NCBI GenBank assembly: GCA_000934665.2
Contig: KZ538515.1
Span: 1-64,000, forward strand
Direction: 5' to 3'
From: Catajapyx aquilonaris
Taxonomy: Eukaryota
Length of the DNA: 64,000 bases
In this document: one piece after another, positions 2,196-63,722 of the stretch
Position numbering within the stretch: position 1 is the stretch's first letter
Layout: each line of letters opens with the position of its first letter
The notes under the pieces: generated by a model
What the model saw: the letters and a program-made list of their open reading frames with translations, nothing else
Database searches by the model: none
Told to the model about the DNA's origin: nothing
Made by a program: the position numbers and the translations under genes

Positions 2196-2572
2196 ATAAT
2201 GAAGTGTGTGCCCCACTCCGTCCTGTGGCTTCTCCGCTTTCCGGCAGTGGGAGAGGCAAACCTGCAGCAGGCAGCCCAACAGATGGGCCTCCCACCAGGT
2301 CGCATTATCTTTAGTAACGTGGCAGCCAAGGAGGAGCATGTGAGGCGTGGCCAACTGGCTGACGTTTGCCTCGACACACCCCTCTGCAATGGGCACACCA
2401 CTTCCATGGACGTCCTGTGGGCAGGAACCCCTGTTGTTACCTTGCCTGGAGAGACACTAGCCTCCAGGGTAGCAGCTTCTCAGCTGGCCACCATTGGCTG
2501 CCCAGAGCTTGTGGCTGGGACCAGGCAGGAGTACGAGGACATTGCTGTCCGTCTGGGAAATGACCGGGAGTA
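2196..2572 (+). CDS. Ogt: O-GlcNAc transferase (OGT / super sex combs), penultimate coding exon, C-terminal catalytic lobe
   Basis: Pyrimidine tract and ctcAG acceptor end at 2195. Translation [23 protein letters not shown]...[56 protein letters not shown]...[14 protein letters not shown] matches the conserved OGT C-Cat sequence. The exon ends GAG TA|gtaagt (phase-2 donor), so the ORF-track stop at 2571-2573 is a split TA|C Tyr codon. Confidence 0.97.
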
Positions 2573-3401: not shown

Positions 3402-3564
3402 CCTGAAGGCCATGAGGGCTAAGGTGTGGCGTTCCCGGATGACATGCCCCCTTTTTAATTGTAAGCAGTACGCAAGTGACCTGGAGAGGCTGTTCTTCCG
3501 TATGTGGGAGAGGTTTGCACATGGGGAGAAGCCTGATCACATAACAGACTGGCCCGAGCAGTAA
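3402..3564 (+). CDS. Ogt: OGT terminal coding exon
   Basis: Acceptor tcttttgtgttccAG ends at 3401, and C3402 completes TAC. Translation (Y)LKAMRAKVWRSRMTCPLFNCKQYASDLERLFFRMWERFAHGEKPDHITDWPEQ* matches the OGT C-terminus (YLK..R.KVW..R..SPLF...QY...LE.L...MWE.....KPDH). Stop TAA at 3562-3564. Confidence 0.95.
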
Positions 3565-4364: not shown

Positions 4365-4744
4365 GTGATGGCGCTCATAATTGCAGTTATTTGACGTTAA
4401 ACCCACCTTGAGCGTGGCACGCTCTTTGACACCTTTGACTCAGATATGCCTGAATGATTTTTTGTTTTAATTTTGTAAATATTTTTATGAGCAAATGTAC
4501 TCGCAACTAAAATCTTAACTGGTACATGTGTCCTATATACAGGACACTAGGCATATCTGTGTTGCTCCTATTTTGTGGAGGGAAGGGAAGGTTAGGGTGC
4601 CCTTACCTGGGATTCTCCTGCAGCTCTACCCAGGAGAACAGGTGAGCACCACTATTACCTATGGTTAGTGCGAGTGGACTTTGGTTGTGGCAGCACAAGT
4701 AGGTGTGGAAAAGGTAAGTTGGACTTCATACTGATGAGTATATC

Positions 4745-5096
4745 CATTATCTGAGAAACCGGGGAGAAAAAAGTGGAAATGTCAAGTACCACCATGTCGA
4801 TTAAACTTTTTCCCTTGAATGGTGTCCTCCAGGACAGCATGCACAGAATTACTTCCCCCAATAATAATAATAATGGATACCCAATGTAATGACGTAGGCC
4901 TGCAAAACCCCACTGATGCCATGCCAAATAGTTCTGCTGCCTGATAGTGCATGGCTCCACCATACTTCTTGATTTCTAATGATAAGTGGCAATTGTAGCA
5001 AACTATGTTCATAAAATAATGAGACAATCCCTGCAGTTGAATGTCATTCACAATATTAATGGCTACAGCATCCCTCATTTGTCCCTGCTTCCTTGC
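4745..5096 (-). repeat. Inverted, diverged duplicate of OGT intron and 3' splice site (source ~1505-2201, minus the piggyBac MITE and a ~60-bp segment)
   Basis: The reverse complement aligns with 1505-1552, 1819-1960 and ~2023-2201, ending ...tttctcag|ATAATG, 6 nt into the OGT exon. Confidence 0.92.
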
Positions 5097-10264: not shown

Positions 10265-10950
10265 ACGAGGTAAAAGCACATGCCCTATCGACATGCGCGT
10301 TTTGGAGCCAGAGCTGCTGAGAGCAGGCCGCATTTGGCAGTCGGTTCCCTTAGAGGCTGGTAGACAGTTGTGGTGTAAGAAACGTCCTCTGCAGTAATCA
10401 GATTAATGCAGGATAATCATCCACATTGTCGGATTTAACAACACTTGCCAAAAGTCCTGTTCTTGTATCCTTTTGGTGTATGCATCGTGACCGCGTCTTA
10501 TCAAGGTAAATTTTACTCCACTGAATTCGCTGAATGTTGTCCATTCAACAGAGCATCTTCCATAGTGTGTTGTTGCGCCCCATTTGCGTGTAATGTTCGA
10601 ATAGTGACTTAGGTATAAAGTAGGGATACCATGTTGGGCATATGACCAACCTGTGGCATACAACAAATCCTGGCTGCAGCCAGTAGGATTGCTTTATTTG
10701 GACCATGTGAAAGCAGGGAACCTTTTCAAGAAACACGGTTCTCCCAAAGTACAACAAAAAGGCTGTTTGTTGTTGCTCATTGTTCAAATTGATACTGAGC
10801 TATCTCTTCATTGTTGTGACGGGAGTTTCTTACCCCCACGACTGTCTACCAGGCTCGAAGAGAGCCGACTGCCAAGTTCAGGGTTGTGCTCCCAAAACCA
10901 TACGCGCCCAGGACAGCGCATGCCGACAGAGCATGTGCCTTTACCCCGTA
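10265..10950. repeat. Diverged ~120-bp inverted repeat pair (10265-10383 / 10825-10950)
   Basis: ttggcagtcggttcccttagaggctggtagacagttgtggtgtaagaaac is matched by the reverse complement of 10825-10875. The outer part taaaagcacatgccctatcgacatgcgc is matched by the reverse complement of ~10915-10945. Confidence 0.65.
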
Positions 10951-17345: not shown

Positions 17346-17480
17346 CCGATTCTTGTGTCTTTATTGCATGGTAATGTAACACGTGCAAGCATATGCTTCA
17401 CACACTTATTCTTTCAGGTAAATAAATGACCTGCACATGCTGTGGGGAGCGTGCCAACAACATGTTTACACAACATTCCT

Positions 17481-17550
<70 letters not shown>
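17481..17550. repeat. (TAG)n microsatellite
   Basis: Direct reading. It is the source of the poly-Ser and poly-Leu ORFs in the track. Confidence 0.95.
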
Positions 17551-17552
<2 letters not shown>

Positions 17553-18674
17553 CTCCACTAATTAGTCGAAAATTGTATAGTGAAAAAAAATTAGGAGGGG
17601 CACAGGCTTCAGAGAAATGGGAAGTGGGGTGGGTGGGAGCCGTGTTTGAGGGCAATGGACCCAGAGTTTGGCAGCCGAGTTCTCATTGGCCCCGGCAAGG
17701 ACAATCCAACCCTCAAAAAGAAAGAAGAGAGAAAAAAATCTCCCCAATGGCATGAAGGGGGGGGGGGGGGNNNNNNNNNNNNNNNNNNNNAGGGTGGGGT
17801 GGAGGGATGAAGGTGGGTCACAAAAAAAAAAAGGCAGAGAAAGAAAAATCTGGGACGATCGCCAGCAGCATCAGAGTCCTCCAGATATTCCAAGTCACGA
17901 GGCCTTGTGCTAGTAATTTTTATCAGCCCCCCCAAAAAATTTGTTGACAATGAGTATTTCCAACGGTCCCAAGATTGACAGCGACATCATTCCAGGGACA
18001 AGGGTACTATTTTCTATATGAAAGGCGGTAGAAATGTAAATAAACAAATATCTTATCAAGTGAAGCCACCGCGATATCTAATGCCTGATGTAGGCCTACC
18101 CCATTTGTGTTGTTGATGGACACATATCACCTAGTAGCACATACGTCACGAACAGCATACATTGACCTCTCTGTTCCTGCTCCCTGCCCGCCCTCCCAAA
18201 CACATGACGTGCAAGGTTCATCCTACCGGGGTCCCGAAACGTGAGAAGAGAGGCCGTTGCCATAGAAACATGTAAATGCATTGAGTATCGTTTGTTGCGC
18301 TCTGCAGCTGCTTCCATGCTCCCTCGTCATTGTTTCCGCGCAGACATATACTTATCATAATATCATAAGCCAGAAAAAAAGGGGGGGGGGGGGAGGTCGC
18401 ATAACACCCCCCTTAGCAAACGGTTTCCTGCTGCCATGTATGTTATGTACCCGGAACGCCCCTCCTCCGGGTTGGCTATTTAGGATTGGATCGTTGGCAA
18501 CATGGCAACAAGGCCCAAAACCCATGACCCNGAGATGGGTACACGGCAGTGACGTCACAATCCTCCCCTCCCTTCATCTGACACTAAAATGCCCCCCATG
18601 CATTATTGAGTCCCTAACCAAATCTGCATCCACCCTGTAAGGCTACCCATACTTAAAACGAAAAGATTGGAAGT

Positions 18675-25280: not shown

Positions 25281-25868
25281 AAGGGAGATGTAAGTGTTGT
25301 CAATGGAGTTGCTCAATGAAACTTGGCACAATAATATAGGCGGGTAAGTTATTAAACAAAATGCAAACCGTTTCGGCGAATGCCTACAAGGTCAAAAGTT
25401 ATAACCTCTCGAACTCACAAGGGACACTTTCCAAGGTGTCACCGATTTTCTTGAAATTTGGTACATTGGTAGACCACCCCAAGGGATGAAAAACGCGCCT
25501 AAAGTGACCTGCTCAAAATGACCCGGTGACCCCTTTTTGGGGGGTAGAGGTCAACTTGTAAATGCCGAAAACTTATGGATTTTCTTGAAATTCGGTGCAT
25601 TGGTAGCCACCAAAAAGGGGTCACCGGGTCATTTTGAGCAGGTCACTTTAGGTGCGTTTTTCATCCCTTGGGGTGGGCTACCAATGTATCGAATTTCCAG
25701 AAAATCGGCGACACCTTGGAAAGTGTCCCTTGTGAGTTCGAGAGGTCATAACTTTTGACCTTGTAGACATTCGCCGAAACGGTTTGCATTTTGTTTAATA
25801 ACTTACCTGCCTATATTATTGTGCCAAGTTTCATTGAGCAACTCCATTGACAACACTTACAGTTCCCT
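25281..25868. repeat. Near-perfect ~260-bp inverted repeat inside a repeat element (Helentron-associated or foldback)
   Basis: 25281-~25541 is the reverse complement of ~25609-25868, with few mismatches. The spacer carries a further copy of the internal unit gattttcttgaaatt(t/c)ggt(a/g)cattggtag. Confidence 0.88.
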
Positions 25869-32732: not shown

Positions 32733-33129
32733 CAGGGTGTCCGTGAACCGACCAGTCAGACCTGTACCCGTGGCTTAAATGACACGAGAGGATCATGTTA
32801 TGTAGAGGAGACATTATGTCTGGGCAGCCTCATTACTGAGATAATTGCCTTTATACGACAAGTACAAAGTATCCTGGGAGGTATGGAAACCTTCACCCCC
32901 GAAATCGCATCACGGGTGAAAATATAGCAGCTTTTCCATTTGGCTACTAGCATGTCGCATGTGATCTGTGACAATCAGTGACAATCACTCTTAGGCCCAA
33001 TCGCTAAATCGTAAATGATCGATTATCTCAGTAATGAGGCTGCCCAGACATAATGACTCCTCTACATAACATGATCCTCTCGTGTCATTTAAGGTAAAGG
33101 TCTGACTTGGTCGGTTCACGGACACCCTG
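32733..33129. mobile_element. Tc1/mariner-type MITE, ~110-bp TIRs, TA TSD
   Basis: TA|CAGGGTGTCCGTGAACCGACC... and ...GGTCGGTTCACGGACACCCTG|TA; arms are nearly identical. Confidence 0.9.
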
Positions 33130-35419
33130 TATAGAAAACCTAAATTTGGCACTTGGGGCCTACCATGCCTAAAGGCAATATTTTTAAGCCACGTAATGTC
33201 CATATGTCACCAGCAATGACGAGGTCAAAAATTGAAAACCTCAAATCCTAATAAGAATACGGAGGCATATTTCTTTGAAAATATCGCTTTTATACATATC
33301 TAGGACAGGCATTATGTTATGTGGCCTAAAATGGAAATATTAATTCCGATGGGTATATATAACAATATGCAACCAAAATCCAGCTTCAATTCAGGATTTT
33401 CACAATAAGCTTCGTACATCCTATGGGGTTGTGAATGTAAACATAATAGGGGTACTGTAATTAATATTACTAATGCAGCAACAATTATTTACGTCGCATG
33501 TGATTAACGTGACTGACAACTACTCTTTTGACTATAAATGACGTAAATACAGCCGTTGTCGCAAATCACACCCGGAATTATACCTAATGCACTCGTAAAG
33601 TTGTGTATGCATATATACAAGCATAATTTCATGTTCCAATCAATGAAAACTACAAAATGCAATAACTGCTAACAAAATGTACGTTAACAGCACGATTCTG
33701 TCGGTATATTTTAATGTAGGCCTATACCTGACTATATAGATTCGGAAGTGCAATAATGCCATACCGTATGACCTTCAAGTGTACTATATCGATGTCACCT
33801 GAACTACATGTATTGGCATTGTTCAAATTTCAAAAGTCCGCACATCACAAAATTCACTGAATAATTGAATCACCCAGTCTATAAATAAGGAGGTCGACAT
33901 GTAGACTCCACCGGTACCTGAAACGATCAGTTTATGTTCTATCAGAAGCTATAGACCTATTCTATTTTTTTCCCCCCTTCCCCACTGGGGGGTTGGGGTC
34001 GTGGTTTCCTGCTTCAGCTAGATCTTTTTCCGCTTTTGATTCGTGGTGCCCAGCAGGCTAAGCCCACAGCAAAGGTCAGGTGCAACACAAAATATTCAGG
34101 AAGATAATGCATAAGTAAACCAGGCATATACACCGCATCGGTTTTTCTCCTTGAGAACAACCCAGTGCTCCTTCTAAGTCACGAACATGACGTCATATCA
34201 ACATATACGTGTGCAATGATGGGCGGTCTGTTGGTCATGAACCCGTTCCAGAACTATACTAGGACATAATATCCATCTCTTAGATTCTCCTTGTCACCAT
34301 TACGCTTACATAACTGCCAGTATGAGACCAACGACCGCATGGTTTGATGTGGCAACGTCGCATGGATGCGCGCGCAGATACTGTTTTGGGCTGTATAAGA
34401 CAGGGTTGGAGTTATACGAAGGACCGTGTGTATATAGTAAAAGAAAAATAATTATGGCCATGGTAAGGGATTGGGTGGGGTGTGGGGGGGGGGGGGGGGG
34501 ANNNNNNNNNNNNNNNNNNNNNNNNNNNNNNNNNNNNNNNNNNNNNNNNNNNNNNNNNNNNNNNNNNNNNNNNNNNNNNNNGGGGGGTATGTTTGTAACT
34601 GCCTCCCGCCAAAATCTGGCTAGCAGTTTGGCAAAAATCTCCATATGACTTTTGATGGGTTGTGTAACAGTTTTGGCGGGAAAATCGCGGTGAATGCCCC
34701 CAGAAAGAACAGTGTTGCCATATTTCATAAGACGCAGTACAATAAGCATTTTAGACACGTGAGGATGCTTCTCCCGCTCAAAAGCAGCTTTTTTTTCTTC
34801 TTCTTAGAAACAGTTACGCATCCGGCCACTTAAAATCAAGGTTATGACNAATTACACCCCCCCCCCCTTCCAAGACCAGCTCATTTTGGGTTTGTGCATG
34901 AAGACTAGTTTCCCACGTCTTCGTACCATGAAAATTACGGTGCTGAAAATGTCTTTCTTAATCGCATGCTCTCAAAAGAAGGGGGAGGGAAATGTGACGT
35001 CGCTAGTGACTAACTTATTCCTCAAGACGTTGTTGTAAGCAATGGTTTGTAACAACATTGTAAATGTGAAAGTCACGGTTGCGTTTCTTTTCAATGCTCT
35101 CTCTCTCTCTCTAGTTTTTTATTGCGTGCGCACAAGTGTTAGGTGGTGCCCGTTGGAGCCATGGAGATTTCGCCATCCAAGGTCTCAGTTGTTGCTGCAT
35201 TAACCTATACGAACACTTGGGTTGCTGTTATCTACGTTGTGACAAAACTAATGCAAATATATGATTAGCTCTGAAATTGCTAAAGTTATAGGTACACCCT
35301 GTACTGCCCTGCTGCTTATCTACATTATTTTGAGTCTCCCTGTAGATTTAATAAATGTTTACTCAAATCGAGAAAAATTTCATGTATAGGAATATGTGAA
35401 ATATGTTCGAAGTATATTT

Positions 35420-35636: not shown

Positions 35637-38600
35637 TCCCGAGTTCACCGAGTTCAAAGTATATAATGTGTGTAAGAATATGAGCTCGGTAAATTATATG
35701 CAAGAAGTATTCACGAGGCTACCATGATATAATTAAATGTTAATGATGAGCCGTTCATGACAACACATGGTCAAAAGGCTGTTAAGTGATTGCTGTGACA
35801 CATGTACGGCACTTGGCTGTAAATATAGACTCTGTACACAATCACATGCTATAAATTGCCAAAGGTCAATGCCGATAATATTCATGTTCCATTCCCTACT
35901 TTATCTGACAATTTCACACTATACATAACAAGCATTACTGGGAGTGTTATATAAGGTTAGGTCAACATAATTATATCTGTCACTTTAGCTTTCTTTTGTG
36001 TAGAAAGTTTCAATGACTAAATGACAAGGCAAGTCTCATTTTATATGCCATAAAATGCGGTTTGCCAGTAGTTATGCGAGATGTAAAACATGATTCTGAA
36101 GGTTAGAATAATCAAAATGCGTCATGTGAAGTGGCCCAGTTCGAGACTTTGTTACCTAAGATGAATAATTTCTGATTCTGATTCAGCATTTAAAAATACC
36201 ACTCAGTGCCATGAATAAACATGCACTTATGCAACCAATTAAGGCACAGATTTTTACATGTGTACATACACACGCACTTTTTCTCCAGAAATCGCAAAAA
36301 TACACATAACTTTCATTATCTCGAGTAGTGACACATGCACAACTGAAGCATGAGTTGTAATTTGGGGCACTTGAGATAACGTTCAGAACAATGCTCAGAA
36401 TCAGAATCTGAAGTTCTACAAAACTGACTGACGAAATGAGGAATGTGACTATTTCCAGATATTCCTGAACCTAACTGTGTGTCTTGTGGGTAGAGTGCCA
36501 ATAATGTTGTGGCCTTCACATCTGCTCTAATTTCCATTACTGAGAAAAACCAGCTGCAATATGCAAAATTGTCTGTGACGCCATCGTTTTCTCTGCTCAA
36601 GATCATTGTCCTGAATACGCAAATAAGTCGGTAACCTCGGAGTTGCTTCAGGTACATGGCAATTCCCTAGCATATTCGAAGACCAAAATACTTCATAAGA
36701 CATTTTTAGTTCAGACCTGGCTTCATTACGTATAGTGTATATACAAGTAGAATATCTTGTAAGACATATTAGCTGTCAAGTGGGGTTACTGTACGTGTAC
36801 TATACATGATACTTCCTAGACATGCAATGGTAACCTGATGAAATCTTATAATTGCCATCGCACGCTATAACCACCTAAAATGATGTAAAAAGTATTTTGA
36901 TCTTGTAATACATGCCAAGGAATCGCCTTGCCTCAATCATCTTCGGGAGTCACTGACCACTCCAGTACTGCAATTAAAATGATGACATCATCGATGCAAT
37001 CTATTTTGTAGCTCATCCAACACGTTTTTCCAAGCAATGGAGGTCAGAACATGATTTCGTCCCTCTACATTTCTAGCTTCAGTCGGCTCATACAATCACA
37101 TGGCCTGTGCATCTCTAAGACTGCTATACATACTGTTGGTGACCTGTGTATATTTGCATGGTTATGGCCTGATTATGTCAACAAATCCTGTAAACAACCT
37201 TTGCACATACCCGGACCTGCAAGGCTTATTTTGACTCTGCCCAGATTTTGAAAAACGCCAACTGCATCAGTATACTGTATAGTGTACATCCAGTTCCATG
37301 AAAGGTGCTTAGTATTGTACTGTACACAAACGGGAAGCGGAAGTGTCATTTCATACGCAGCATCTCTTGTTCGCCAGGAAGTATCCAGCAGGGGTACACC
37401 AGTACATGCTAAAAACACGTGTGCTCCATACATGACACGTGACTTTGTGACCAATATGCTGAAACAATAACTGCCTACTGTTTCCAATAGAAAAAAAAAG
37501 GTGAAGCCATAAAATGTACTGTAAGTTGCTCATTTCAAGGATTGTTAAGTCATCACCTAAGGAACCGTTATCCATTCAACCAATCTATTGCTTGTCCCAA
37601 TTCTGGTTATAGGAACCATCAAAAAATTGGAAGCAGATGGCCATCGATGTTGTCCATTTTTTTTGTGTGTCCAATCTTTTTTTTCTGCCTTCATTTTGGA
37701 GGTTGGATTGGAATAAGGCCAAGAGAAAGCCGTAGGAGGAGCAATTCCATGAAACCAAGGTTATGGGGAGGGAAGGATTTGCACACAATGGAAGATGGTA
37801 GGTGTGTGGTGGTGGGGTTGGACTGGGGGGGAGGGAGGGGGAGATGAACATGCGAAGCAGTGTTGCTACATATGGTAACCCTGTTTTTAGGGAGGGCGGT
37901 TTGTGGACAGGATTTTTTTTTTTTTTTGCATGCCCTTAGGGAAGGATTGCAACATTAGACTAAATCAAAAATGGCGTCCGCAACGTCAGCACATGGTCTC
38001 TGGCATTACCATGGTACATGAAAATGGTTAGTGACCTCCAGTTTGTGATACACATGAGAACCTCGATTACGTTGCTGTAAGCTCAAAATGATAATGGTGA
38101 GTGGAAGAGAGTGAGATACTGCATGGGAGAGAAAAAAAAAAATAACGGTTATATGGCCTACTTTCACTAACTTGTAAATCAAAAGTAGGACGCGCATGGC
38201 CAAGCGGAGTGGAACACGCTTTCGGAAATGCGCAGTAAAAAAAAAAATTATAGAGGGGGTAGGTGGTGGAGGTAGATTTAGTACGCAATTTTCCATGTTC
38301 AATGGAGAATACGGTACCGTACACCTCTTGCCACATATTATGCTGGGCGTTGTAGTTGACCCTGTAAAAATTTTGAATTTTTGGTGCTTCAAATAAGTCA
38401 TTGGCAGATTTTTTTGGGCTCTAATATGTTTAATTCATTTTTTTTTTTCAGGTTTGAAATCATGGTACATACATGACCAATATTCGGCAAGTGTACGTTG
38501 CCGTACATCACAATTACAATTTTTCTGATTCAGAACCATTTGACAACAATGGTACCAGGAAGTTGTATATATACCAAACACCCACTTCCTGTTCCATGCA

Positions 38601-38782
38601 CACCCACACACACACACACACACAGACAGAACCACGATAATTCGACAAAATGTTCGAACTAACGAGGTTACTTATATACCTACATCATCATGGAAGACAA
38701 CAAAAAAGAATACACGACCCACATTTTCAGCTGTGTTGATTGTTGTGTGTAATAAATCCCACGTTGTTCTGCTCGGTGGAAT

Positions 38783-38845
38783 CATAGGAGAGAGAAAAAG
38801 ACTGACTGTCGGTCACCCACGTCGAGCCTGCTTCTCTCTCCTATG
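38783..38845 (-). ncRNA. mir-14: microRNA precursor mir-14 (mature 3p 38784-38805; predicted 5p/star 38821-38842)
   Basis: Minus strand 38805->38784 reads UCAGUCUUUUUCUCUCUCCUAU, identical to insect miR-14-3p as I recall it. It pairs with AGGAGAGAGAAGCAGGCUCGAC across a 14-15 nt loop. A lower stem UCGGUG/CACCGA, a loop-proximal GUG and a CNNC (CAAC, 38766-38763) 18 nt past the 3' end are present. Confidence 0.95.
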
Positions 38846-39199
38846 CAGTGCACACCGACATTATCGCCGCCATTTTTGTTTCAGGATGTCCTCTTCTGGT
38901 TGTGTCACCGAGTCTCTTATACTACACTCCACTACAAGGGGGGGTCATGGTCGTTCGCACTGGGGTCACTGCCACTACCCCAGTGGTCGACCTCAAGGTG
39001 GATGGACTTGGCCGGTTGGAACAACACACACTGTCTTCTGCTTCTTCTCTGGAGGAAGGACCGGGCTCAACTGCCACAGTGGGACGCTTGGGATGGCAAT
39101 GGGGATGTGGCATGTGGGNNNNNNNNNNNNNNNNNNNNNNNNNNNNNNNNNNNNNNNNNNNGGGGGGGGGGGGGTGCTACCGGACACATTGCGAAAAAC

Positions 39200-39480
39200 G
39201 GACGCCTCGCAGATAGCGGCCTGCAACGCGAGTGAGCCGCCGTTCCATGGAAGCCACGGAGCCAACATTTCAAACGCAGACCACGCCCCTCTATTGCAGC
39301 TCCGACCAATCCCAGCAGTCTTCTACCTCTCTCTACTATCCCCAGCCAACCACCCCCACTATCCACCGCGTCCCCTTCTACCCTCTCAGCCACCCCCTAC
39401 TCCCCCCCCCCCTTCCCGCGCAAAAAATCCTAGAGGGGGGGGGGCGGGGGGAGGGGGCGCAGTGTTGCCAAAAGCAGGAT
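39200..39480 (-). promoter_or_regulatory. Candidate proximal promoter of pri-mir-14
   Basis: GC/CpG-rich segment ~0.4-0.6 kb 5' of the hairpin on the minus strand, with Sp/KLF box CCACGCCC (39281-39288), CCAAT (39306-39310), poly-C/poly-G tracts and CAGTGTTGCCA (39460-39470). Confidence 0.45.
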
Positions 39481-40617
39481 CCGACCTTCCTCACCATGAA
39501 ACGCGGTTGTCCACTGCCCGTATTTTTCGGAGGCAATGGGGCGGCCGGTACCGGTACCGGTCCTACCCTAACTTGGTTGGCCGGAGTGGGTGGCAACTAG
39601 GGTTAGGGTAGGGTAGGATATCACATTGAAATTACAGGCTAAGTTATACATAGTCCTAGCGGTTGGTTGGCTATCGATCTCTACGTGCGAGCGTGGGGAA
39701 AGGGGTGGGTAGATGCGGGGGAGGAGAATCCGGAGTGGGGAGGAACGGGCGGACGGGTAGATGTGCGGGGAGGTATCGACTCAACCTCTTCATCCTAATT
39801 CCCAAAAACCGCTATTGCTTTCTACCAAACACTGGTTTTTTTTAAAGGGGCAATGTGGCAATGTAGCCGCTATTATTTTTACACCGTAACTGCTGGGACA
39901 TCAAAATATATATATAAAAACGGGTGTCCTTCACGCATGCGTATGGTGGCCATGGAATTTGGTCGTATTTATGGCGCATTGACATACGTGCGGCTTGATA
40001 CACGCATAGTTCCAGGAAGAATAGATTGGGGGGGGNNNNNNNNNNNNNNNNNNNNNNNNNNNNNNNNNNNNNNNNNNNNNNNNNNNNNNNNNNNNNNNNN
40101 NNNNNNNNNNNNNNNNNNNNNNNNNNNNNNNNNNNNNNNNNNNNNNNNNNNNNNNNNNNNNNNNNNNNNNNNNNNNNNNNNNNNNNNNNNNNNNNNNNNN
40201 NNNNNNNNNNNNNNNNNNNNNNNNNNNNNNNNNNNNNNNNNNNNNNNNNNNNNNNNNNNNNNNGGGGGGGGGGTCTATCCATTGTGCATAGAAATAACCT
40301 ATGGTGTCACAAGTGCTCATAAATAAAGGAATTTGCCTTCGAGCCCATAAAATATCTGCGAGTTATTTTTGCAACCGTTTTTTGATGCAAAAAGGGCTAG
40401 CACATCAGGCGTGTACAGTTACCTTTCTAATGTTCTTTTTCACTCATGATGTCATCCCGCAGAGTGTCCGGTGAAGTCAGCCTGCAAGGATTCAAATCAC
40501 TTGTATAGCTGTTATCTGGCGACATGGGACAATAAGGAGATGAAGGACTATATAGTTGATAAGCTAATATCCCAGACCCCCATTGTCTCTATAGAGGAAT
40601 TTCGAAAACACGCAATA

Positions 40618-40669: not shown

Positions 40670-42542
40670 TACCACTGACACTCCCAGCAACAGGGGCAGT
40701 GAACCTCCCAAAATTACTGGTTGGTAGAACTGGTTGCAACAAATTGCCCAAAAATTTGAACCAGGTCATCCGCACAATTCAGCAAACCGAACTGAAACTA
40801 TTCTAAAACTCTTACCAAACATGCGTACATTAAAAAAAAAAAAACGGCTGCGTGTCCATGGTCACTTTGATTGCCGCCCCAACCATCGGCAACAGCACTT
40901 AGTGAGCAACCAACCAACCAACCAACAGCCATATCAAGGCTTCCATTTTTTTTTCTCCCACCGCGTGTCCTCCCTCAGCGTGCCAACCTTGAGATCCGCC
41001 AGAGTTGCCAATACCTTACGCGCAGTTGCCTTTTACTTTTAATCAAAAATTTCACTTTCGCCCTCCCCTCATAATAAAATACCGCATATATCCGGATCGT
41101 ACCGGTTCAAACCGTTGATGCTACGGTGTCCATTTTGTCTCCATAATGGCAGTTTCCGTAAGTTGGCCGGATGTGCCAAGTGTGCATCTTGCGCAAGTGT
41201 TCTGAGAAGGTGGCATACCGGTACACGTGAAATTTTATCAAGACGCCGACCTTTGCTGACGCACATCCGTGGTCTCCTATCGCAATACTGGGGCTGTAGG
41301 GGAAAATACCCGGTTTTTACCATTTTTTGGGGAGAGGTTACACATGGAATGCGTTTGGCATGAAGTACAGACACCGCATACCTCTGCACGATATTCGCGA
41401 ATGAGTCAACGGCTGGCAGACTCATAATACGATCGTTGCCTCCCCTGTGTCGATTATATAAGCGTCGGATGGTAGTTACAGAGCGCCCCCCCCCCCACCC
41501 CCCCGAAGGACGAAAGTGGGGTAAGGGCCGTTGTCCTTCCATCGGGGTGCTCGACGAAGGTCACCTGACTTGCAGTCCCCACCCATAAGAAAAACGGCCA
41601 AACCGGACCGGTCAGGCTTGACCTTGTGGCCCGGCCAAATCTCTTTTTTATTACTTATCCTCTTCCGATAAGTCGTTTATCCCCTCAGTTTATGTAATCC
41701 CACACCGACCTCAGTACTACTACACAGGAAATTGTAATCATGGCGGCCGGAATGGGCTTGCAAAACTCAGATTTGGCAACATGTATTGTGTCACGTCACT
41801 TCCGCCAGTAAGGTCATCTCGGAGGGGGGGGGGGGGGGAGGTGTTACAACCGAAAATGCGTCTTCTGGGAACCGTGAATAATAATAACGAATTGCACGCG
41901 ATTACAGTACTGGTGTCTTTGCAGTTATCCCACAATGCGGCGTGCGATTTTTTTTTTTCTGTTACGAGGCTAGCAGATCTGAATGATACCCGAAACGAGG
42001 ATGGATGGCCAGTTATCAAATGGCCGGAAATCTGTTCCGGAAGCGGGGGCGGAGAAACCAGATGCCAATCTAAAACCCTATGTATTTTTTTTTTTGCTTT
42101 TTTGTGATTGCAAAACTGGACACACCTGTCATCATAATCCCCGCATGGTCTTTATTTTTTTATCATTTTTCCTTCCCCCCCCGGTTTTTGCAATCTCCCC
42201 CATGGAGTTAGTCACGTGATGACGCATCAGGCATGCCAATGTAACAATTTCGTAAACATTCGCACGTGTGTGGCCGTGTGGGTATAGCACTGGATACACG
42301 TGCACGACTGACAATAATGGAGGCAAATGGTGCACTTTCACCCTATTACAGGACGCCTCTATTGGCAACCTTGGCCCTGACAGATTTCGACTGAGGGGCG
42401 ATATACAAGAGGGTGAGATGGAGGGAGGAAAAATTAGTGAGGAAGGGCAGTTGTTATTGGACGCTGCAGGGTCTTCTGCCATTGGTCAACACTCTTTTGG
42501 AGCCTCTGTAGCACGCCATTTTGAGGACATGTGGAAGAAGTC

Positions 42543-45289: not shown

Positions 45290-45921
45290 CAGGGTGATTC
45301 CGGGTAACTTTGGCAAAAATCACAGGGTGGGTAGAGGCCCCATAGGTAAGTATTTTGAGCTTCGGTACCCATGTCCGGAAATGCCCCCATACGGGGGTAC
45401 GGCCGTTTCCACCTTTAGTATGTTGCGCCTGGTGGGTAGGCAACCTCGAACGCCATAGAGGGGATTCATAGACAAGGAACGGGTGCGCTCAGACGCTTCA
45501 CGCGGGAGGCGCTAGGCGAGAGGACTGTTTTGTTGATAGATGGCGCGCAGTTGTTCCCAGGTTATGGCGCATCACGTCGTTGTAAGCAAACAACGACGCG
45601 ATACGCCATAACCTGGCAACAACAAAACCGTTGTTTACTCTCCACACGTCTCCAACAGGAGGCGGACTTTAGTTGCTAGATGGCTCTGCTGTTGCCGGGT
45701 TATGACACATCGCATCGGTGTTTACTATCCGAGCGTCATCTATTAACAGAACAGTCCGCTCGCCTAGCGCCTCCCGCGTGACGCGTCTGAGCGCACCCGT
45801 TCCTTGTCTATGAACCCCCTCTATGGCATTTCCGGGCACAGGTTCCTATGTCAAAAAAAAACTTGTCTTTGTCCCCTATATTATCCCTGCAAATCTTTAC
45901 AGAGTTACAGGAAACATCCTC
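45290..45921. mobile_element. Tc1/mariner-type palindromic MITE, related to 46073-46634
   Basis: CAGGGTGATTCC left end and degenerate gaaacatcctc|ta right end. Its internal inverted arms (ggaacgggtgcgctcagacgc...) are shared with the adjacent element. Confidence 0.8.
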
Positions 45922-46072
45922 TATGCTGTACTTTCCAGCAGAAATCATTTCTGCATTTTAAATAAACGTCTATTCCGCTATACCCTTTCCCTTCAGGAAC
46001 TGCTGCTATTATTGACTTTCATAGTATAAGCCTAACATGTACTAAACAATCCTATGTATGAGAAACAATATA

Positions 46073-46634
46073 CAGGGTGTAAATGAATTCAGCCGACAAA
46101 CTTGTAGGGGTGATAGAGGGGACCAAGACAAACATATTTGACATAGGAAACCGTGTCCGGAAACGCCATCTAGAGGGGGTTCATAGACGAGGAACGGGTG
46201 CGCTCAGACGCTTCACGCGAGAGGCGCAAGTCGAGCGGACTGTTTTGTTGATAGATGGCGCGCAGTTGTTGCCAGGTTATGGAGTATCGCGTCGTTGTAA
46301 GTAAACAACAACACGATACGCCATAACCTGGCAACAACAGAACCGCTGTTGACTATCCGCGCGTCTCCTGGGAGGCGCACTTTATTTGCTAGATGACTCT
46401 GTTGTTGCCACGTTATGGCACATCGTATCGTTGGTTACTATCCAAGCGCCATCTATCAACAAAACAGTCCGCTCGCCCAGCGCCTCACGCGTGACGCGTC
46501 TGAGCGCACCCATTCCTTGTCTATGAACCCCCTCTAGATGGCGTTTCCGGACACGGTTTCCTATGTCAAAAATATTTGTCTTGGTCCCCTCTATCACCCC
46601 TAGAAGTTTGTCGGTTGAATTCATTTACACCCTG
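46073..46634. mobile_element. Tc1/mariner-type MITE, ~190-bp TIRs, TA TSD
   Basis: TA|CAGGGTGTAAATGAATTCA ... TGAATTCATTTACACCCTG|TA. The mirror ORFs 46083..46304(+) and 46382..46624(-) simply reflect the two arms. Confidence 0.92.
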
Positions 46635-47899
46635 TATAGGCTATACTGTAATTATACTACGTCAGAAACGAGATTATAGGCTCAAATGACCAAACTACTT
46701 ATGACAATGAGAGTAGCCAGAAAAAAAATAGTGTTGCAAAAAACCGTATTTTCCGGATCGTAGTCCAATAATGAAAAAAGCCTTTTTACAAAAAATGTGG
46801 ATTTTTCCTGCCAACGGCGAACTTTTCCAAAATTCCTTTTTTTAACAAGTCCATTGTCCATTTATCTATTATAACTCATTACTGACATCACCTGATTAAA
46901 CAACTCAAAATCGTATTACTGACAGTCATAAATCTGGGAAATGGGCCTGTCACTGCGTCGGCAGTGCTTACTTTTCTGGGGATTCCCCGAAGGGCAGAAA
47001 GGTATATTGCAGGCCCCAATCACACTGCAACAGCAGATTTCTGCAGGGATTCCCCCTCACTGATTGGCCCAGAGATCAAGTATAGGAGCCAAGCAAATAT
47101 TACAGTAATTTTTGAGGACTTGCATAAAAATTATTCGCCATAAAAGTCGTTAAACCGTTATTATTAGACCCACTTCAGAATACTTTGTATACTGTATCAG
47201 CAAGAAATGATACACATCAGCCTTATACATCAGTAACTCCCGCATGCTGGCAGGTATAGGGCAATTCCCCTTGACCTATTCCAGAGACCAAAATACCCTG
47301 ATGCTTCATATTGGCTAGGAGGCCTCATTATACAGCAGGAGGCGTACGGCGGCAATTCAGTTTTGGTAATGCCCCCATGTGAATGACAGAGAATAGCCTA
47401 CAGGTTAAACCACTCGGGTATCATTGTGGGTTATGTGGTTTCATAACCATCAGGGTATTCCTTCTCATTCACATCACATAATTGCAGCCATGTGTCCCCA
47501 TTCAAATACTATTTTCTTGAAATAGATCAGGAATTTCCCTTACTTCCTTATCAAGAAAATCGAAAAATAAAGGGTCAGTGGGACATAAACAAGGTCACGT
47601 AATACAGTAATGGTTATAATTTGTATATGATTGCTATTAATAGTTCAGAAAATCGCGAGTCACGAATAGCTCCTAATTATTTCACGGGATTAGGCTATAA
47701 CTGTAAGCTGTTATTCGTTTTCCGCATACGCAACTACTACTATACATTTAATCTACGACTATTACAACACTCGCCATTTATCAGTTGCTATTTGCGTAAC
47801 CATTTCCCAGCACTTGTTTTGACTCAGCACGATGCCCATTATTTACGCAACAACATAATGGCACTTGCCATTAATTTGTCTACATTCAGTAAGATTTCT

Positions 47900-48340: not shown

Positions 48341-51300
48341 TTGGATGGAAAATTGTAATTTAATTACTGAGAGAGAAAGGATCATACTAATCGATAATGG
48401 ATTTTGTGTTCGACGATAATTTATGTTGGAAATTGATCCTAATAAATTACATCAAAAAGTGACTCAGTTTTGAAATTATTTTTCGTGAGTACTATACGTA
48501 CAAGTAGCTAGTGATAATTTATAGTTGAGAATTTCAATTTTCCTAATTTCAAATGGGTATCACTTACTGTGGCTATTGAAAATGCTAAACAATTACAAAT
48601 GTTCTCAACTTTCAAGCATAGCCTATAGGTTTTCGCAATTGAAGAAAGACATACGGTGGTTTAAAAATTGAGCTTCAGTTTTCATCTAATAACAATTAAC
48701 GATAAACAACTTCCAACAGAAATGATCGTCGAACACCGCAAAATCCATCTTCATGAGATCCTTTCATCCAAAAAATAGGGAAATAAAGCCGCATGGAAAT
48801 ATAGTACAAGGTGTTTTCGTTTCATATATTAATTTTTTGTGATTAAAATCTAGAATATATGAAGGTGTACAGTATGATGCCAAATAAGCAACTGTATATA
48901 CAAATGGGTACAATTTCTTCCACAAAAAATAAGATAGCTCAAGTATAACAACCTTGTACAGTGCCCTTCCTCTGCATGTTATAAAATAGCAAGTGTCATT
49001 GAATCACCATGCGTGCAGTATACAGTATATACTGCAGACTATATCTATTAAGTGAATCACTCCAAAGAAACGCGCTATATCAGTTAGATAGTGTAACAAT
49101 TAACTTACATATCGCATGCTGCAATGTGAATAACTTAAGATATAATTCGTAACAAATGAAGGGGTTGCAATCAAGGGTATAGTTACCTCCAGCGCTTGGG
49201 ACACTTTGAGATAATCCATAGAACAAATGTAACAGCTCTGCCATGTTACACATAGCTACTGACTTGATAAGGAAAATTAGAGTAACTTTTGATAATTCGG
49301 TGCATACATCATTATGTTAAATCCCAAAATTCCTTTATACTGTGATAATCAAATATAGCAAATGATCACTGTAGCAGAAAATAGCAATAACGAATTTACT
49401 GAGTCACATGTTACTCGTAAGTCCAACCATTTTTTTTTTCTAGATTCCAGTGTATCTATTATTATTGTGTCACAACCCGGTTTTCTTTTCAGCCCAATTT
49501 TTAATCTCCCAGCTATACAGCCTGTATACCTACTGCATAGGCTATAGGTGCTTTGTATACAGTTGCATTAAGGTTGGGTCGCCTCAATGAGATTCAGGGC
49601 TGCATAGGTCATGGTACGCCCTAGGGTGCGAGTGTGTGTTGTGCTTGTGGGAGTGAGGGGGATGTGTGTGTGTCAGAGAGAGAGAGAGAGAGGGGGGGGG
49701 GATTGGGGTAAGGGCTTTTATTGCAAATTCCCACCTCCCCTTCAGCCCCTTTACCCCCATATCAATAATAGGACCGTTAAATCACGTGTCTATGAGATAG
49801 TAGGCTACATAAGAACGAAATGTATAATTTCCAAGGCAGGGCGGGGGCGGCAGATTGGTAGGGTTGGTAGTGATGCTTGTGAATTAATTTGAACATAAGT
49901 GATTGTTAAGTCCTTGGCCCTCCGGTCGCCACTTCCCGCTTTGGGCACAGTCCTGCCAAATTACAATTAATTAATTCGGCCTTCTAACTCAAGTTTGTCA
50001 ATTATTTTCTTTTGTTGCCATCATTCTCTCATATACAGCCGGCCATTTTTTGGGACGTGTGTAGGCCAGGTGTCAATGTCTGGTTCTGAACAGGTATTGA
50101 GCTTGGTTTACTATAAACGTATATATACAGAAGGCATACCCGGTATGAATGGGATTAGAAATGTTCATTCACCGAATCGACGCTCCCAGTCTTGGGAAAG
50201 TTTACCTTCCGCCTTTGTTTAGTATACGCTTATACAGTACGTTGATCCATACTACGATAGTCCATATACAGGATCAGTAAATAGAAAAAAAATAAAAATC
50301 GGTTAACTTGGCAACCCTCGCAACGGCTCCCCCCTCCCCCCCATCCCCTACATTTATATAGGGGAAAAGTCGGAGGGGTAAAGTGCACGTAGGAGAGATT
50401 TGGGGGATGGTGGGTATAGCCTTTTTTCTATTGGCTGCCTCAAATTCCAACGGCGGAAGTCCCCCCCCCCCCCCCNNNNCCCCCCCCCCCCCTCTTCTAC
50501 TACCCTCCCTCCAAACATTGCAGCACGTGGCAACACTGCCAAAAGAGGATGGCCAACTGTTGCTGTAATGGCCGCCCGATTTATGTTCCGGTGAAAAAAA
50601 AAGAAGATATGGATCCAAACATGTCATGTGTTAAGCAACCGGTAACTTGGAGTAAGCGTAAAAGCAACAGTTTTTCGCAAGTGATCAGAAGGGTTGGTAA
50701 TTTTGGGGCGCCATGTTTGATTTTTTTTTTTACAGGAGGTGGGAAAGGGTGGCGGTTTTTTTTATTTATTTGTAGCACGCAGCAGATGCGTGGTGTGCGT
50801 GGTTACTAGGACTAAAATGCCCTTGGGAGAGTTTGGCATTCTTAACCCCCACTGTTGCGTGTGTGGTCAATGTTTGGGTGTGTATTTGAAGGGGGGGTAC
50901 AAAACGTAGCCAATTGGACTCCGAGGCCACCTCTTTTTTGACCGACAGCGACCTCCCAGCCCAATCCAACCCCCATGACCTCCATGACATTTTTCTGCCT
51001 GCAAATCCTCCCCACCCCCGTACAGTTTCGCCAAATTATCATCTTGCAACACTGTGTGATTATGACCAATTGGTACCATTCGACTAATAAAAAATGGCAG
51101 AGCTGGCAAAAACTTGCGGGCAAGACTTGTCCTATTTAGACGGTTGGTATATAGGAGGGGCTGGGGGGGTGGGGGCCAGAAGAATAAATGCCTTGGCACC
51201 TATTAGGTCCTTAAGTGTCGAAGATTTAGTTCGCCATATCGAAGTCACGTACGTCAGTCACCATCAATATGGATCAGATCACTGATGTATTTTTAGCCTC

Positions 51301-57400: not shown

Positions 57401-58480
57401 AATTTATAACAATAAAGCTATAGCATTCTTGTTCCATCTATCTCATCCCTTTGATATAGAGAAACCTGAGGTATTATAAATGTATATGGATAATTTGCTC
57501 CAATAATTACATCAATTGCGTTAACGTTCTACACCTAATTATAAATTCTCAATTGTAAACTTGTTTGACATCGCCTTGACATTCAAGATTATTGACATAT
57601 TTAACTGGAAGTCTTCATTGAATCATTATTATTCAGACTGTGGCAAACAACGTATCAGCATTGCTACGTGCGCTTGTGGCTCATCATTACCCTCTTGGCT
57701 ACTGTGTACAGTACAGTATACCGGTTATCCGTGCTGCAAAGCTATAGTCATTATGTGACTATCACTTCATATCAATGTCAATGTACCTTGCATAACAACT
57801 GGACATTAATGACATTACGACTGCACGAGGCATCATGCTGTTGCAATTCAGGTGAGAAAACCTGCAATTCAACATATTAGATCACATTTTATACCAACAT
57901 TCATGTCACGTACAGTACCAGTTACTGTACACTATTATACATATTATACCAGTTACCACATACAGGTATTGCATACCCATATTACTTCATTCACCAATAA
58001 CATGAGAGGTCTTATGGCTTCTAAAATAAACTTCAAGAACCCACTACCATTCGGATTTGTCACACTGCTTTACTCTAGGTCACACACTCCGAGCAATTAT
58101 ACGACATGAATAAACCACAACCTCTAGCGTACGGTAATTTGCTGAAATGAGGCTGCATTGTGTTGACAACTGGAAGCTAGACTGGGGGGAAAAACCAGTA
58201 GTACTATCATACCCTATACTGTATATACATAAACCTATCATTAGTCACGATCACATGTGGCCTTGCTGTACAATGACAGGTATCGTGCACACATATACTT
58301 ATCTCCACCCTGCATAACTACGAAGCCCATCCCCACTCTAATCCCCCCCCCCCCAATTCTTCCGCAATGAGGCATGGGGGCATTGACCTCCTGGGAAGTG
58401 ACGTCACATATGACGCTCAGTCACAAATATTTTTATACTCAAAATCAAATCATCTGGAAATATTACAGTGCCAATTAGGC

Positions 58481-58547
<67 letters not shown>
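58481..58547. repeat. (TAT)n microsatellite
   Basis: Direct reading of the sequence. Confidence 0.95.
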
Positions 58548-59027
58548 TACTGCAAATTCAAAGTGCAAATTTGCAAATCGCCCCATCTACAAGTCATACG
58601 TGACACTCACCTCTTAAAAAGGTGGGCAGTTTCCAAGAAATTACAAAATTTGGAAGGAAAAAAAAACCCACATGCTGCCGCACACCAATACGCTTCCTGT
58701 TGCTTCAAAGTCTCGGCCACAAAAGACGTCACACTCACTCCGCGTTGTGTGCGTGTGTATATGTAGAGTGTGTGTGTGTGTGAAGAAAAAAAAAGGAAAG
58801 GGGGGGGGGTAGGGCATTGACCTCTTACCACGGGGACGTACGTAAACCCACAGAATAACAATAATCAACAGACCTACATACTGTCACCCAAAATTACATG
58901 TGTGGACGTCACACTCTCATACGCACGCTCATGCACACACACACTCACATATGCACTGCGATTGCCACCAGTCACCAGGCTGCCCACCAGGCCTAGTTGA
59001 ACAATTCAACTCAAAAAATTTCGCACG

Positions 59028-59962: not shown

Positions 59963-62332
59963 CCATACCATTACTCATATAGGAAAAAATCTGAAACATC
60001 TACCATTTCCACGTGCAATGCCTTTTATTCCCCCCNCTACCCCACCCTGATCAAGATACCGTAATGCGAAATTCCGTGACGGTAGCCCCTAGATAAAGTC
60101 GATCTCTGGTCAGATATTGGATGCTGCGAAAGAAAAACCGGGAGGGTGCCCTAAGAATGTTTTCTAGGATGACCTGGGGGCCCCCACCAGGCACGGAAGG
60201 AGAACAGCAAAAGGGTCACACACACAAAAAATTAAAGAAAAAGAAGGGTAAAGGATGAAGAGGAATAACAAAAAAAAGGAGGGACGCACGTGGCGATGGA
60301 AAAGGAGAAGAAAAGGGCATTGACGCTATTCGAGGGTGGTGGTACAAGGAAAACAAAAGGTAGCTGAGGGCATGGATCAAAAACCCGGATTGTTACGCTC
60401 ATTGTTGGTGGCACGCAAAATCCGGAAGAGGTCTGAGGAGGAAATGGGGGAAAGGAATGCGTGCGACCTTGGTTCGATGTGAGGTGAACGAACTTATAAA
60501 AGACGTAACCGGCAACACTTACACGCCATCAAAATAATATAACACTATTTTTAGATGCCCCATGGTTTTGTTGTTGTTGTTGTTGTTTGTAAACAAAACA
60601 ATATGTAAAATTGAGCATTGTAATAAATCATGCTGTTGGGAGAGATAGGTTCATTCATGCCAATTCATCAGGGAGGTTTTTCCACGCAGTCGTAAACTGG
60701 GGGCTTTCACTGGCAAAAACGACAAGTTGGTCATGAATGACGACCCATTTCGAGTTATAAGTCCATAACCATCCTTAACAATCCTCTTCTTGCACATCAG
60801 CTTTTATACATGTCACCCCCCTCCTTCCTACCACACCCCCCCGAAAAATCGGATTCGACGTCCAACCATATCGTAATGAAATCTCACCATCGATTTTTTT
60901 CCCCCAGGTTCATCGCACTCTTGTAATTAATAATATTTTAAAAACCATCGAAGAGTGCCGGATATAGCCTCAGTGTCCTAACTACATTTTGGAACCCCTC
61001 AGTTTAAAAAAAATTAGTCACATAATAGCATTTTCAGTCCTAATTTTTGATACTCTCATCCTCAGCCAACTGAGGCACGGGAAACAGCATCGTTACCAAG
61101 GCGTCGAAGATCACCGTACATTTCCCTCTGAAGAAGCTTGAAGAAGAGTGGAAAAAAAAAAGAACGGCAGGAAGCCACGTGGAGGAATGGTCAACAAGCA
61201 GCAGAATCTACCCCCGTATACTTCCTCTTCCCCAAGCCTGTTTAATGGCCCCCACACCGCCAGCTAGATAAATCCCATCCACCCCTACTCTTCTATTCAC
61301 AAGAGAGGATGAAAAAACAGCAAAATGTTGCCCCACCAAAATATTTTATGGTCGACCAACAGCTGAGAGACTCGCTCGGCAAACTTGCCAAAACAATTAG
61401 TGGTAATATGGCATTGTTTCAAGTCATCATGATTCCATTGAATTTTCCCATTGCGTGGGTGAATCATTTTGTATCTGACGTTGTGGTCTACTTATTCATA
61501 GTTTTTTTCCCCACCATTTGCGACATTATGTTACAACAGCCACCAGGTCACGTGTAACGCTCTCACGCACCAACACACACATCAACAGGTGCCAATGTCG
61601 CCCCCCCCCCCCTATCCTCCCACACCCCCATGGCCTGAAAGTGAGTTATTCAGGCAGGTTCATTGCTCACATTAGAAGAATGCCCTTCAGGTTAAGCCCT
61701 CGTAATTCTCCTTGAACAGTAGCTTGAACTGACACATTGTCATGTAATCTGTACTGTACACGTTGCATGTTACGTACATTGTCTAACCCGCAGGGCTCTT
61801 TCCCATCCATCATTTAGGCCATCAAAAAGTTTGACTTAAACCCGGTTGTATACATACATTACCCTTAGTATGTACACTCGCGACCATAATGTGGACGGTA
61901 GGTCCACAACTTTATGTTCGCGACAGTACTGGCCGATTCGAAAAAAAAAATGTAATTGACTCAAAATCTATAGGACTAGCATATTAAATTAAAATTAGGC
62001 AGATATTAGCCAGTAGCCGTTATCACGTGGGGGGGGGGGGGGGTTATCATGCACATGCCGGGTAGAATCCTGTGTCCCGTTCCCACGTGGGTTGGGTGGG
62101 GTTGACAGACTCCTTCTCACCAACCCGTATTTATCCCCCTCCCCACCTCATCCCCCAACCTGACTACTCCACCCCCTTCCTTTCACTATCGCCTAAAAAC
62201 ACGTCAGGAAATCCTATAGGGGGCAATGGGGAGGGGGGGGGGGACCTATTCCATATGTCATTCCCTAACTTCCCAGATGACGCAGGTTTTTTTCTATGCG
62301 ACAATGTCCCACTTTTGAAGCACCCCCGCCAC

Positions 62333-62380
<48 letters not shown>

Positions 62381-62393
62381 TGTAATAATAATA
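62333..62393. repeat. (AAT)n microsatellite
   Basis: Direct reading of the sequence. Confidence 0.95.
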
Positions 62394-63629
62394 TGTAGTG
62401 GGTCTAGCTCTTGAAAATAACGGTAATTTTTGGGGGTGTTTCGGAATGGGAAAAGTAGATCCAAGTGTCGTTGGCGTCGGCGCCATATACGCACAGATGA
62501 CTATTGATCGAGAGAGAGAGAGAGAGAGAGAGTTGCGTGCAGTGTTGCCATGCCTAAGAGCAACCCCCAGGAGTGGTGCCGAGAGGTCACGAGGCATACT
62601 TTTCCGCGAGCCAAAATAGCCTAGCTGACTAATTAGACTATCATATGGCCTATTTCTCATTACGTGTGTAGTAATTCCGCTCGTTTATTTCAAAGTGGAA
62701 ATGGGCATCATAGGAATTAAGCTGATTAGGTCCGTACCTTTTTTTTAAAAAAATGTCCAAATGAAAGCGACATATTTTGATGAGCGGAAATTAGGTGGAT
62801 TCGTCCACTAAAATGGATATATTTAAATATTTGACAAAAAAAATTTTGAGCCCGACTGTACCTCCAAATGTAGGTCAGATGGGGAAGTTGCACTGGCAAT
62901 ACCCAATGTTTTGGGTGCGAGGTCAAGTACGGAAAGAAAAGCCTCATTTTCCTCCCTCGCACGCGAAAACTTGGCGCCTTCTTCGAGCGCTGCCAACATA
63001 AACGGCATGATTGCCAACAGTTGTTTTTTTCGCGCATTTACAATACAGCACCCCCCCCCCCCCCCCCGTTCCACCTCTCCAACCCTGCAAACTTCCAACA
63101 TCCAATCCCAGTGATAAGTAGAGGCGGTCAAGGACTGTAAAGTAGGCCACGACGCATTAAAAAAAAAAAATCTACTCATAATCACAAAAAAATGCGATAT
63201 TCATGCATTTGCATTTTAAAAATCGAGAGTGGACCGTAAAGTGGAAAGTTATGTCAGCATTTCATATGCGAAGTGCAACTGATGAATGAAACCTCGCCTC
63301 AGGTTTGTACCCCCCACAAAACTAGGGTTGGAATTATCTTGGGTATATATAGGCCTGTATATAAAAAAAATGGGTAGGACCAGGATAGCTAATGCGTATT
63401 GATTTAGTTTTTTTTTCAGGTTCTGTCGACCTACTTTGCTGGTCCCTCCACACTTCATACATCAGTAATCATCTTTTCCGATTGTTCTCTGATAGATCCA
63501 TTGCGGTTATATTTATACCATATCATATATAGTCGATCACTGACATTTAAATAACCCATACATCCAAACCACCCACACGCACCTTTAAAAAAAAACTCTG
63601 CACAATATTCCACACACAAATTTATTTAA

Positions 63630-63632
<3 letters not shown>

Positions 63633-63718
<86 letters not shown>
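63633..63718. repeat. (AT)n microsatellite
   Basis: Direct reading of the sequence. Confidence 0.95.

Positions 63719-63722
<4 letters not shown>

Follow-up and report, generated by a model that had tools for sequence, protein, structure and literature searches.

The window, by which we mean the whole 64-kb stretch of DNA that was analysed, carries the last two coding exons of an OGT gene on its plus strand and, on its minus strand, a hairpin that matches the mir-14 microRNA family. The features of these two loci are as follows.

2196..2572, plus strand: penultimate OGT coding exon (PF13844, 2.9e-72), with acceptor tctcag/ata at 2195/2196 and donor TA/GTAAGT at 2572/2573
3402..3564, plus strand: last OGT coding exon, with the stop codon (PF13844, 24.2 bits) and acceptor ttccag/C at 3401/3402
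38763..38766, minus strand: CNNC motif CAAC, its first C at +18 past the 3' end of the mature arm (position count)
38770..38783, minus strand: 3' side of the lower stem, with the CACCGAG block (fold)
38783..38845, minus strand: pre-mir-14 hairpin (RF00752, 57 bits; fold z -5.1)
38784..38805, minus strand: mature miR-14-3p, 22 nt, a unique exact match, with its seed (nt 2-8) at 38804-38798
38806..38819, minus strand: terminal loop region, about 14 nt (fold)
about 38820..38842, minus strand: predicted 5p (star) arm, from the fold pairing and assumed 2-nt 3' overhangs
38843..38860, minus strand: 5' side of the lower stem, including a TCGGTG block common to most of the metagenome loci described below (fold)

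When the window was searched with 4227 Rfam families at their curated thresholds, mir-14 (RF00752) was the sole family above gathering. The match covers the model from end to end (positions 1-63 of 63) with 57 bits and an E-value of 7.7e-10, the curated gathering score of this family being 53 bits, and the opposite (plus) strand of the hairpin reaches 35.9 bits with the same model, which is under gathering. No further miRNA or other ncRNA was found in the 20-60 kb interval, 17 extra Rfam matches at E ≤ 1, one of them the antisense strand of the hairpin, all lying far under their thresholds, and within the window the mir-14 locus is solitary, without a clustered miRNA. An earlier note on this DNA had reported an exact 22-nt match to insect miR-14-3p on the minus strand, and we could verify it: the 22-mer reads from 38805 to 38784, constitutes the 3' arm of the hairpin and occurs a single time in the window even with three mismatches permitted, the number expected from 100 dinucleotide shuffles being 0.00. 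A database sequence differing in the seed had been named as grounds against the identification; in the Aedes albopictus and Culex quinquefasciatus miR-14 entry, as given in the available part of PMC2834634, the seed and all 22 letters are the same as in the window (22/22).

The structural evidence points the same way. The 111 nt from 38760 to 38870 on the minus strand fold at -49.3 kcal/mol (z -5.10), against a mean of -31.7 and a standard deviation of 3.45 for shuffled sequences, none of 200 of which was equally stable; the plus strand of the region folds less stably (-40.9, z -3.3). The stretch with the hairpin is identical, with 0 differences, in two DNA runs. The mir-14 features that DNA sequence can show were all found at this locus, namely the RF00752 score, a mature 3' arm with its seed, and a stable hairpin with a duplex of about 22 nt and a basal stem past the cleavage site. 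The mir-14 precursor that had been proposed on the minus strand is thus upheld by the Rfam match, the fold and the identity of the 22-mer, and 38783-38845 is, judged from its sequence, very probably the host's orthologue of arthropod mir-14 and a canonical miRNA dependent on Drosha and Dicer. The copy could be one of several paralogues.

The fold also gives the anatomy of the precursor. A 15-bp run pairs 38845-38831 with 38783-38797. After it, guide position 8 is mismatched (C/U) and position 9 forms a G-U wobble; beyond the position-8 mismatch there are 5+3 further pairs, split by a one-base bulge. Under the duplex come a 5x3 internal loop and then a basal stem of 7-9 bp, which bears out the earlier description of a well-paired hairpin with a lower stem. 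A star arm starting near 38842, also proposed earlier, would follow from this fold and a 2-nt overhang. The CNNC motif that had been pointed out is present, as CAAC at 38766-38763; it is weak evidence by itself, and a CNNC at +18 would occur by chance in roughly one case in five. A motif of this kind some 16-18 nt past the Drosha cut is said, after Auyeung et al. 2013, to be a Microprocessor-enhancing element. The hairpin overlaps none of the window's repeats, among 3 direct families and 10 inverted pairs.

The comparison set consisted of 13 loci (L001-L013), which were fetched with 400-nt flanks from metagenome contigs using the 22-mer and which, because they hold the exact 22-mer in a hairpin, are taken to be arthropod DNA within environmental or host-associated metagenome assemblies. 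Each of the 13 folds into a hairpin that carries the mature sequence in its 3' arm. Eight pass the RF00752 threshold with 53.3-58.3 bits, L006 and L007 scoring best at 58.3 bits, and five fall under it; the 57 bits of the window are near the top of the passing range. The window's margin is narrow, at just 4 bits over gathering, and is to be seen in the light of those five mir-14 loci that score under gathering themselves. The alignment comprised 12 sequences, 11 of them metagenome loci and the other the window; L006, which is cut short and nearly duplicates L007, was left out, as was L010, which is identical to L008. The consensus structure has 20 pairs, and 95.8% of the 240 cells in this alignment are paired; when the partner is shifted by 1-3 columns, pairing drops to 52-62%, and none of 500 shuffles comes up to 95.8%. 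Substitutions in the 5' arm are swaps from A-U to G-U that preserve pairing, both sides changing in one of the 20 pairs, while the length and sequence of the loop vary across the 12 hairpins. Since the metagenome loci were fetched with the miR-14 22-mer, the 3' arm is invariant by construction, and the covariation support therefore consists of one-sided changes.

Outside the duplex, the CGGTG...CACCG basal stem is common to the window and most of the metagenome loci, and a CNNC with its first C at +16 to +19 is found in half of the 14 hairpins (the window and six of the 13 loci). The window resembles each of these loci only over 23-36 nt around the mature arm, and not in the flanks, from which it follows that the 13 loci do not stem from close relatives of the host. 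Four of the loci (L004, L008, L010 and L012) belong to a single lineage, agreeing at 83-100% over 820 nt, and L006 and L007 are near-identical.

The OGT exons define the other landmark of the window. Spliced together, they read ...GNDRE-Y-LKAMRAK... through to the stop codon, with clean splice sites; the last exon scores 24.2 bits with PF13844 against a cut-off of 25, and it covers the end of the profile (516-543 of 543, the final 28 positions). Since these exons are read from the plus strand and mir-14 from the minus strand, OGT and mir-14 converge, as the earlier note had proposed, with OGT ending at 3564 and about 35 kb between them. OGT was considered as a target of miR-14 and dropped: there is no 7- or 8-mer site after the OGT stop on the plus strand from 3564 to 12306 (about 8.7 kb), and the lone miR-14 seed site at OGT is a 6-mer, located within the coding sequence at 3546.

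The region beyond OGT had been described as gene-empty, and this holds for the frames that we tested. The Pfam search took 54 of the 226 stop-to-stop frames of at least 70 aa, comprising the N-free frames of at least 100 aa, the last OGT exon and the N-free part of a 355-aa frame; excluded were 19 frames of at least 100 aa that span N stretches. Pfam matches came from the two OGT frames only, two other frames giving weak, sub-threshold scores (16 bits vs 40, and 15 vs 27), so that the roughly 60 kb past OGT are without a Pfam-recognisable ORF among these 54 frames. The term "gene-empty" is valid at the resolution of an ORF search only, because short exons would escape it. The earlier note's further idea, that this interval is the regulatory and host-transcript domain of mir-14, is conjecture. 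One feature of this region lies close to the hairpin.

39001..39500, no strand assigned: G+C-rich block (61.7% G+C, with 41.4% over the whole window); candidate promoter, with the N run 39119-39161 inside

On the minus strand this block is located 200-700 nt upstream of the hairpin, and it is possibly the promoter region of mir-14. A second local G+C peak, of about 49-50% and with a CpG observed/expected ratio near 1.0, lies at 41001-42000. Both peaks lie upstream of mir-14 in the sense of its own, minus strand and may be promoter regions of the CpG-island type. A stop-free frame of 355 codons (38544-39611, plus strand) spans the hairpin and the G+C-rich block and is broken by the N run; it was rejected as a gene, its N-free part being without a Pfam match, and has probably arisen by chance in DNA rich in G+C.

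The remainder of the window is marked by repeats and by short assembly features. MITE-like repeats had been reported from it, and palindromic elements are indeed present: the inverted-repeat search returned long, near-perfect palindromes with arms of 85-265 nt that are 84-95% complementary.

6827-7690, no strand assigned: palindrome
25282-25868, no strand assigned: palindrome with 265-nt arms at 95%
32774-33093, no strand assigned: palindrome
45449-45830, no strand assigned: palindrome
46069-46638, no strand assigned: palindrome
5324, 5733, 15646, 17771-17790, 18531, 34502-34581, 34849, 39119-39161, 40036-40263, 50476-50479 and 60036: N runs

These palindromes look like MITE or foldback elements, and the two at 45.4-46.6 kb are adjacent, related copies. 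An inverted repeat pair at 1857-2201 and 4745-5015, with arms of 88-94 nt at 90-95%, flanks the last two OGT coding exons, and one arm stops at the acceptor of the OGT exon that starts at 2196. For the putative V-domain SINEs of the earlier note, ARAGORN found 0 tRNA-like heads, and no tRNA-like sequence at all in the window. The 11 N runs are of 1-228 letters and sit mostly within or beside long G or C homopolymers; they look like homopolymer assembly or base-calling gaps rather than scaffold gaps, and the one nearest to the hairpin is 270 nt upstream of it. Long microsatellites at 17426-17682, 58480-58550, 62330-62400 and 63630-63720 show up in the reading frames as homopolymeric amino-acid runs (poly-Ser/Leu, poly-Tyr/Ile, poly-Asn/Leu) and as an (IY)n repeat of dinucleotide type.

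We used OGT to place the host. The 125-aa OGT exon has no match above 90% identity among the best 120 of 1082 proteins, and for this reason the host's own OGT is considered absent from the protein collection, within those best 120. The highest identities listed among the same 120 are 90% for a termite and one other protein and 88% for moths and stick insects. The best E-value to the exon (2.7e-94) belongs to an entry ascribed to the lung fluke Paragonimus kellicotti, at an identity of only 76%; the probable cause is that parts of that entry match repeatedly. The C-terminal exon alone matched 10 proteins among 11 candidates, all at no more than 71% identity and just one of them, a tapeworm protein at 54%, with a species name; by itself this exon is uninformative for the taxon.

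A phylogeny was then estimated from 178 kept columns, using the window's two exons and 55 proteins hand-picked from about 170, with rows that included all named non-insects, a spread of insects, and further proteins without a species name. In this tree the window OGT is sister to all 17 winged-insect rows (ultrafast bootstrap 96, SH-aLRT 79), of which 14 carry genus names and which themselves form a clade with support of 100/98. It stands apart from the springtail (Orchesella), branchiopod (Artemia, Daphnia), copepod-like, isopod, chelicerate and centipede clades. A prior tree of 45 rows had placed the window in the same position, next to a sister protein that was later found to be springtail-like. 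In AU tests, for which both groups were chosen after the tree had been inspected, joining the window to the springtail clade lowered the log-likelihood by 1.28 and was not rejected (p-AU 0.23), and joining it to Polyneoptera was 27.7 log-likelihood units worse (p-AU 0.03).

These results, from one 178-column fragment of a very conserved protein, suggest that the host is probably a hexapod outside the winged insects. The basal-hexapod host put forward in the earlier note therefore stands as a lead, given the sister relationship to winged insects at 96/79, but it does not displace a springtail affinity, which stays unrejected at p-AU 0.23. A more far-reaching interpretation, to which we accord slightly less than an even chance, is that the host lineage split off ahead of the winged insects or has its affinities with springtails, and that the locus would then be an uncatalogued mir-14 of an early-branching hexapod, with an arm that has stayed unchanged at 22/22 letters since before wings.

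Other explanations of the locus have to be weighed against a functional mir-14 orthologue of the host. One may postulate that the hairpin is a silent relic, derived from mir-14 and no longer transcribed or processed, with a functional paralogue elsewhere; lineage-specific duplications of mir-14 are known, for example in Cameraria (PMC4408404), and would supply such copies. A decaying copy should gather changes in its stem, however, and here the mature arm is intact at 22/22, the duplex pairs along its full length, both the basal stem and the position-8 mismatch persist, and the Rfam score is near the top of the 8 passing relatives, so that we regard this scenario as improbable. Still less credible is a chance hairpin, or one derived from a MITE-like palindrome, that merely resembles mir-14. 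Several long palindromes do occur in the window and the antisense strand of the hairpin folds well too, yet the exact 22-mer had an expectation of 0.00 and the Rfam match an E-value of 7.7e-10. Within the window the hairpin occurs once and belongs to none of the repeat families identified there, and its basal-stem motif is common to unrelated loci; we consider this origin next to impossible. A MITE or foldback identity was rejected along with it, as the multiple copies and long terminal inverted repeats that mark such elements were not seen for the hairpin within the window.

A different concern is that the contig might derive from a contaminating insect (prey, a parasite or laboratory carry-over), in which case it would be uninformative on a basal lineage. 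The four runs in which the stretch was found represent one sample from one study and are perhaps the very data from which the assembly was made, which leaves room for this scenario. Against it, the OGT exons are without a match above 90% identity among the best 120 of 1082 proteins, OGT falls outside the clade of all 17 winged-insect rows, and a grouping with Polyneoptera (a group named post hoc) carries the cost of 27.7 log-likelihood units at p-AU 0.03; in addition, the depth of the contig is even along the stretch, at 19-27. We consider contamination highly improbable, ranking it between a silent relic and a chance or repeat-derived hairpin, and a mir-14 gene of the host is the reading that we carry forward.

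How such a gene would work can be sketched from the established miRNA pathway, from which the processing and targeting steps given here are inferred. The minus strand would be transcribed by RNA polymerase II as a longer primary transcript starting above 38870, with the G+C-rich block at 39.0-39.5 kb as the candidate transcript start. The Microprocessor would cut about one helical turn above the basal junction and release the pre-miRNA, some 60 nt long and running from about 38842 to 38784, from which Dicer-1 would remove the loop, and the 3' arm (38805-38784) would then be loaded into Argonaute-1. The retained mismatch at guide position 8 is compatible with Ago1 sorting. Once loaded, the seed (nt 2-8) would direct the repression of mRNAs with complementary sites in their 3'UTRs. 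The functions that the earlier note quoted for Drosophila miR-14 (cell death, fat metabolism, autophagy and ecdysone) agree with the available portions of PMC10985886 and PMC10511911: there, miR-14 is described as acting on autophagy via ip3k2 (Nelson et al. 2014), as modulating ecdysone signalling (Varghese and Cohen 2007) and as controlling insulin production via sugarbabe (Varghese et al. 2010), and it is also tied to cell death and fat metabolism.

The mir-14 locus is an ordinary, expected and strongly conserved miRNA gene, and no new type of element. Because the standard Rfam model finds it at the default threshold, routine ncRNA annotation would report it, and its significance beyond annotation is slight. 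If the host is a non-pterygote hexapod, the locus would add one data point to the effect that the miR-14 guide strand is fully conserved across hexapods, and the convergent arrangement of OGT and mir-14, about 35 kb apart, would offer an anchor for testing old hexapod microsynteny.

The type gene of the mir-14 family (miRBase/MirGeneDB) is Drosophila melanogaster mir-14. In the literature, the miR-14 22-mer string turned up in 21 papers; of the 20 that were listed, 19 are by title miRNA studies of winged insects, and in one insect miR-14 was fed to a springtail. Our limited literature search found no report on wingless hexapods, the 9 papers on miR-14 in hexapods that it returned being, by title, all on winged insects. 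For the 5' arm of the window hairpin, a text search of the literature gave no match, nor did we come across a statement of the node at which MirGeneDB places the origin of Mir-14. Two crustacean leads came to nothing: in a mud-crab miRNA paper the miR-14 sequence is absent and the "mir-14" names are those of miR-146 and similar miRNAs, and in a Parhyale paper the "mir-14" names belong to mir-141xx, the miR-14 sequence being absent from its supplements.

The family reaches beyond insects nonetheless. Leite et al. (PMC4987109), in the part of the article available, report mir-14 in the genomes of the spiders Parasteatoda tepidariorum and Stegodyphus mimosarum and interpret its absence from other chelicerates as loss. 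Pseudoscorpion small RNAs include hundreds of miR-14 reads, which the accessible section of PMC6305488 names by their match to mosquito entries only, and Marco et al. (PMC2956262) list mir-14 among arthropod-specific miRNAs. The earlier suggestion that the family is possibly not confined to insects agrees with the spider and pseudoscorpion reports, to the extent that those excerpts cover them. The further suggestion that the present locus is informative for the family's origin was overstated, mir-14 being already on record, in these partly available sources, from two spiders and a pseudoscorpion and listed as arthropod-specific; because it has already been reported from chelicerates, a basal-hexapod mir-14 leaves the inferred origin of the family where it was.

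Compared with known systems, the window locus is like the spider and pseudoscorpion mir-14 in belonging to a family that is not restricted to insects, a likeness that is one of report, from the available parts of those papers, and not of sequence. With the metagenome loci L001-L013 it has in common the mature 22-mer, the architecture of the hairpin and, for the most part, the basal stem, whereas its upper duplex is nearly all Watson-Crick, with A-U where most relatives have G-U. While its 5' arm and loop are unlike both the Rfam consensus and all 13 fetched loci, the locus corresponds to insect mir-14 (RF00752) in its hairpin of about 63 nt and in a 22-nt 3' arm that is identical, seed included.
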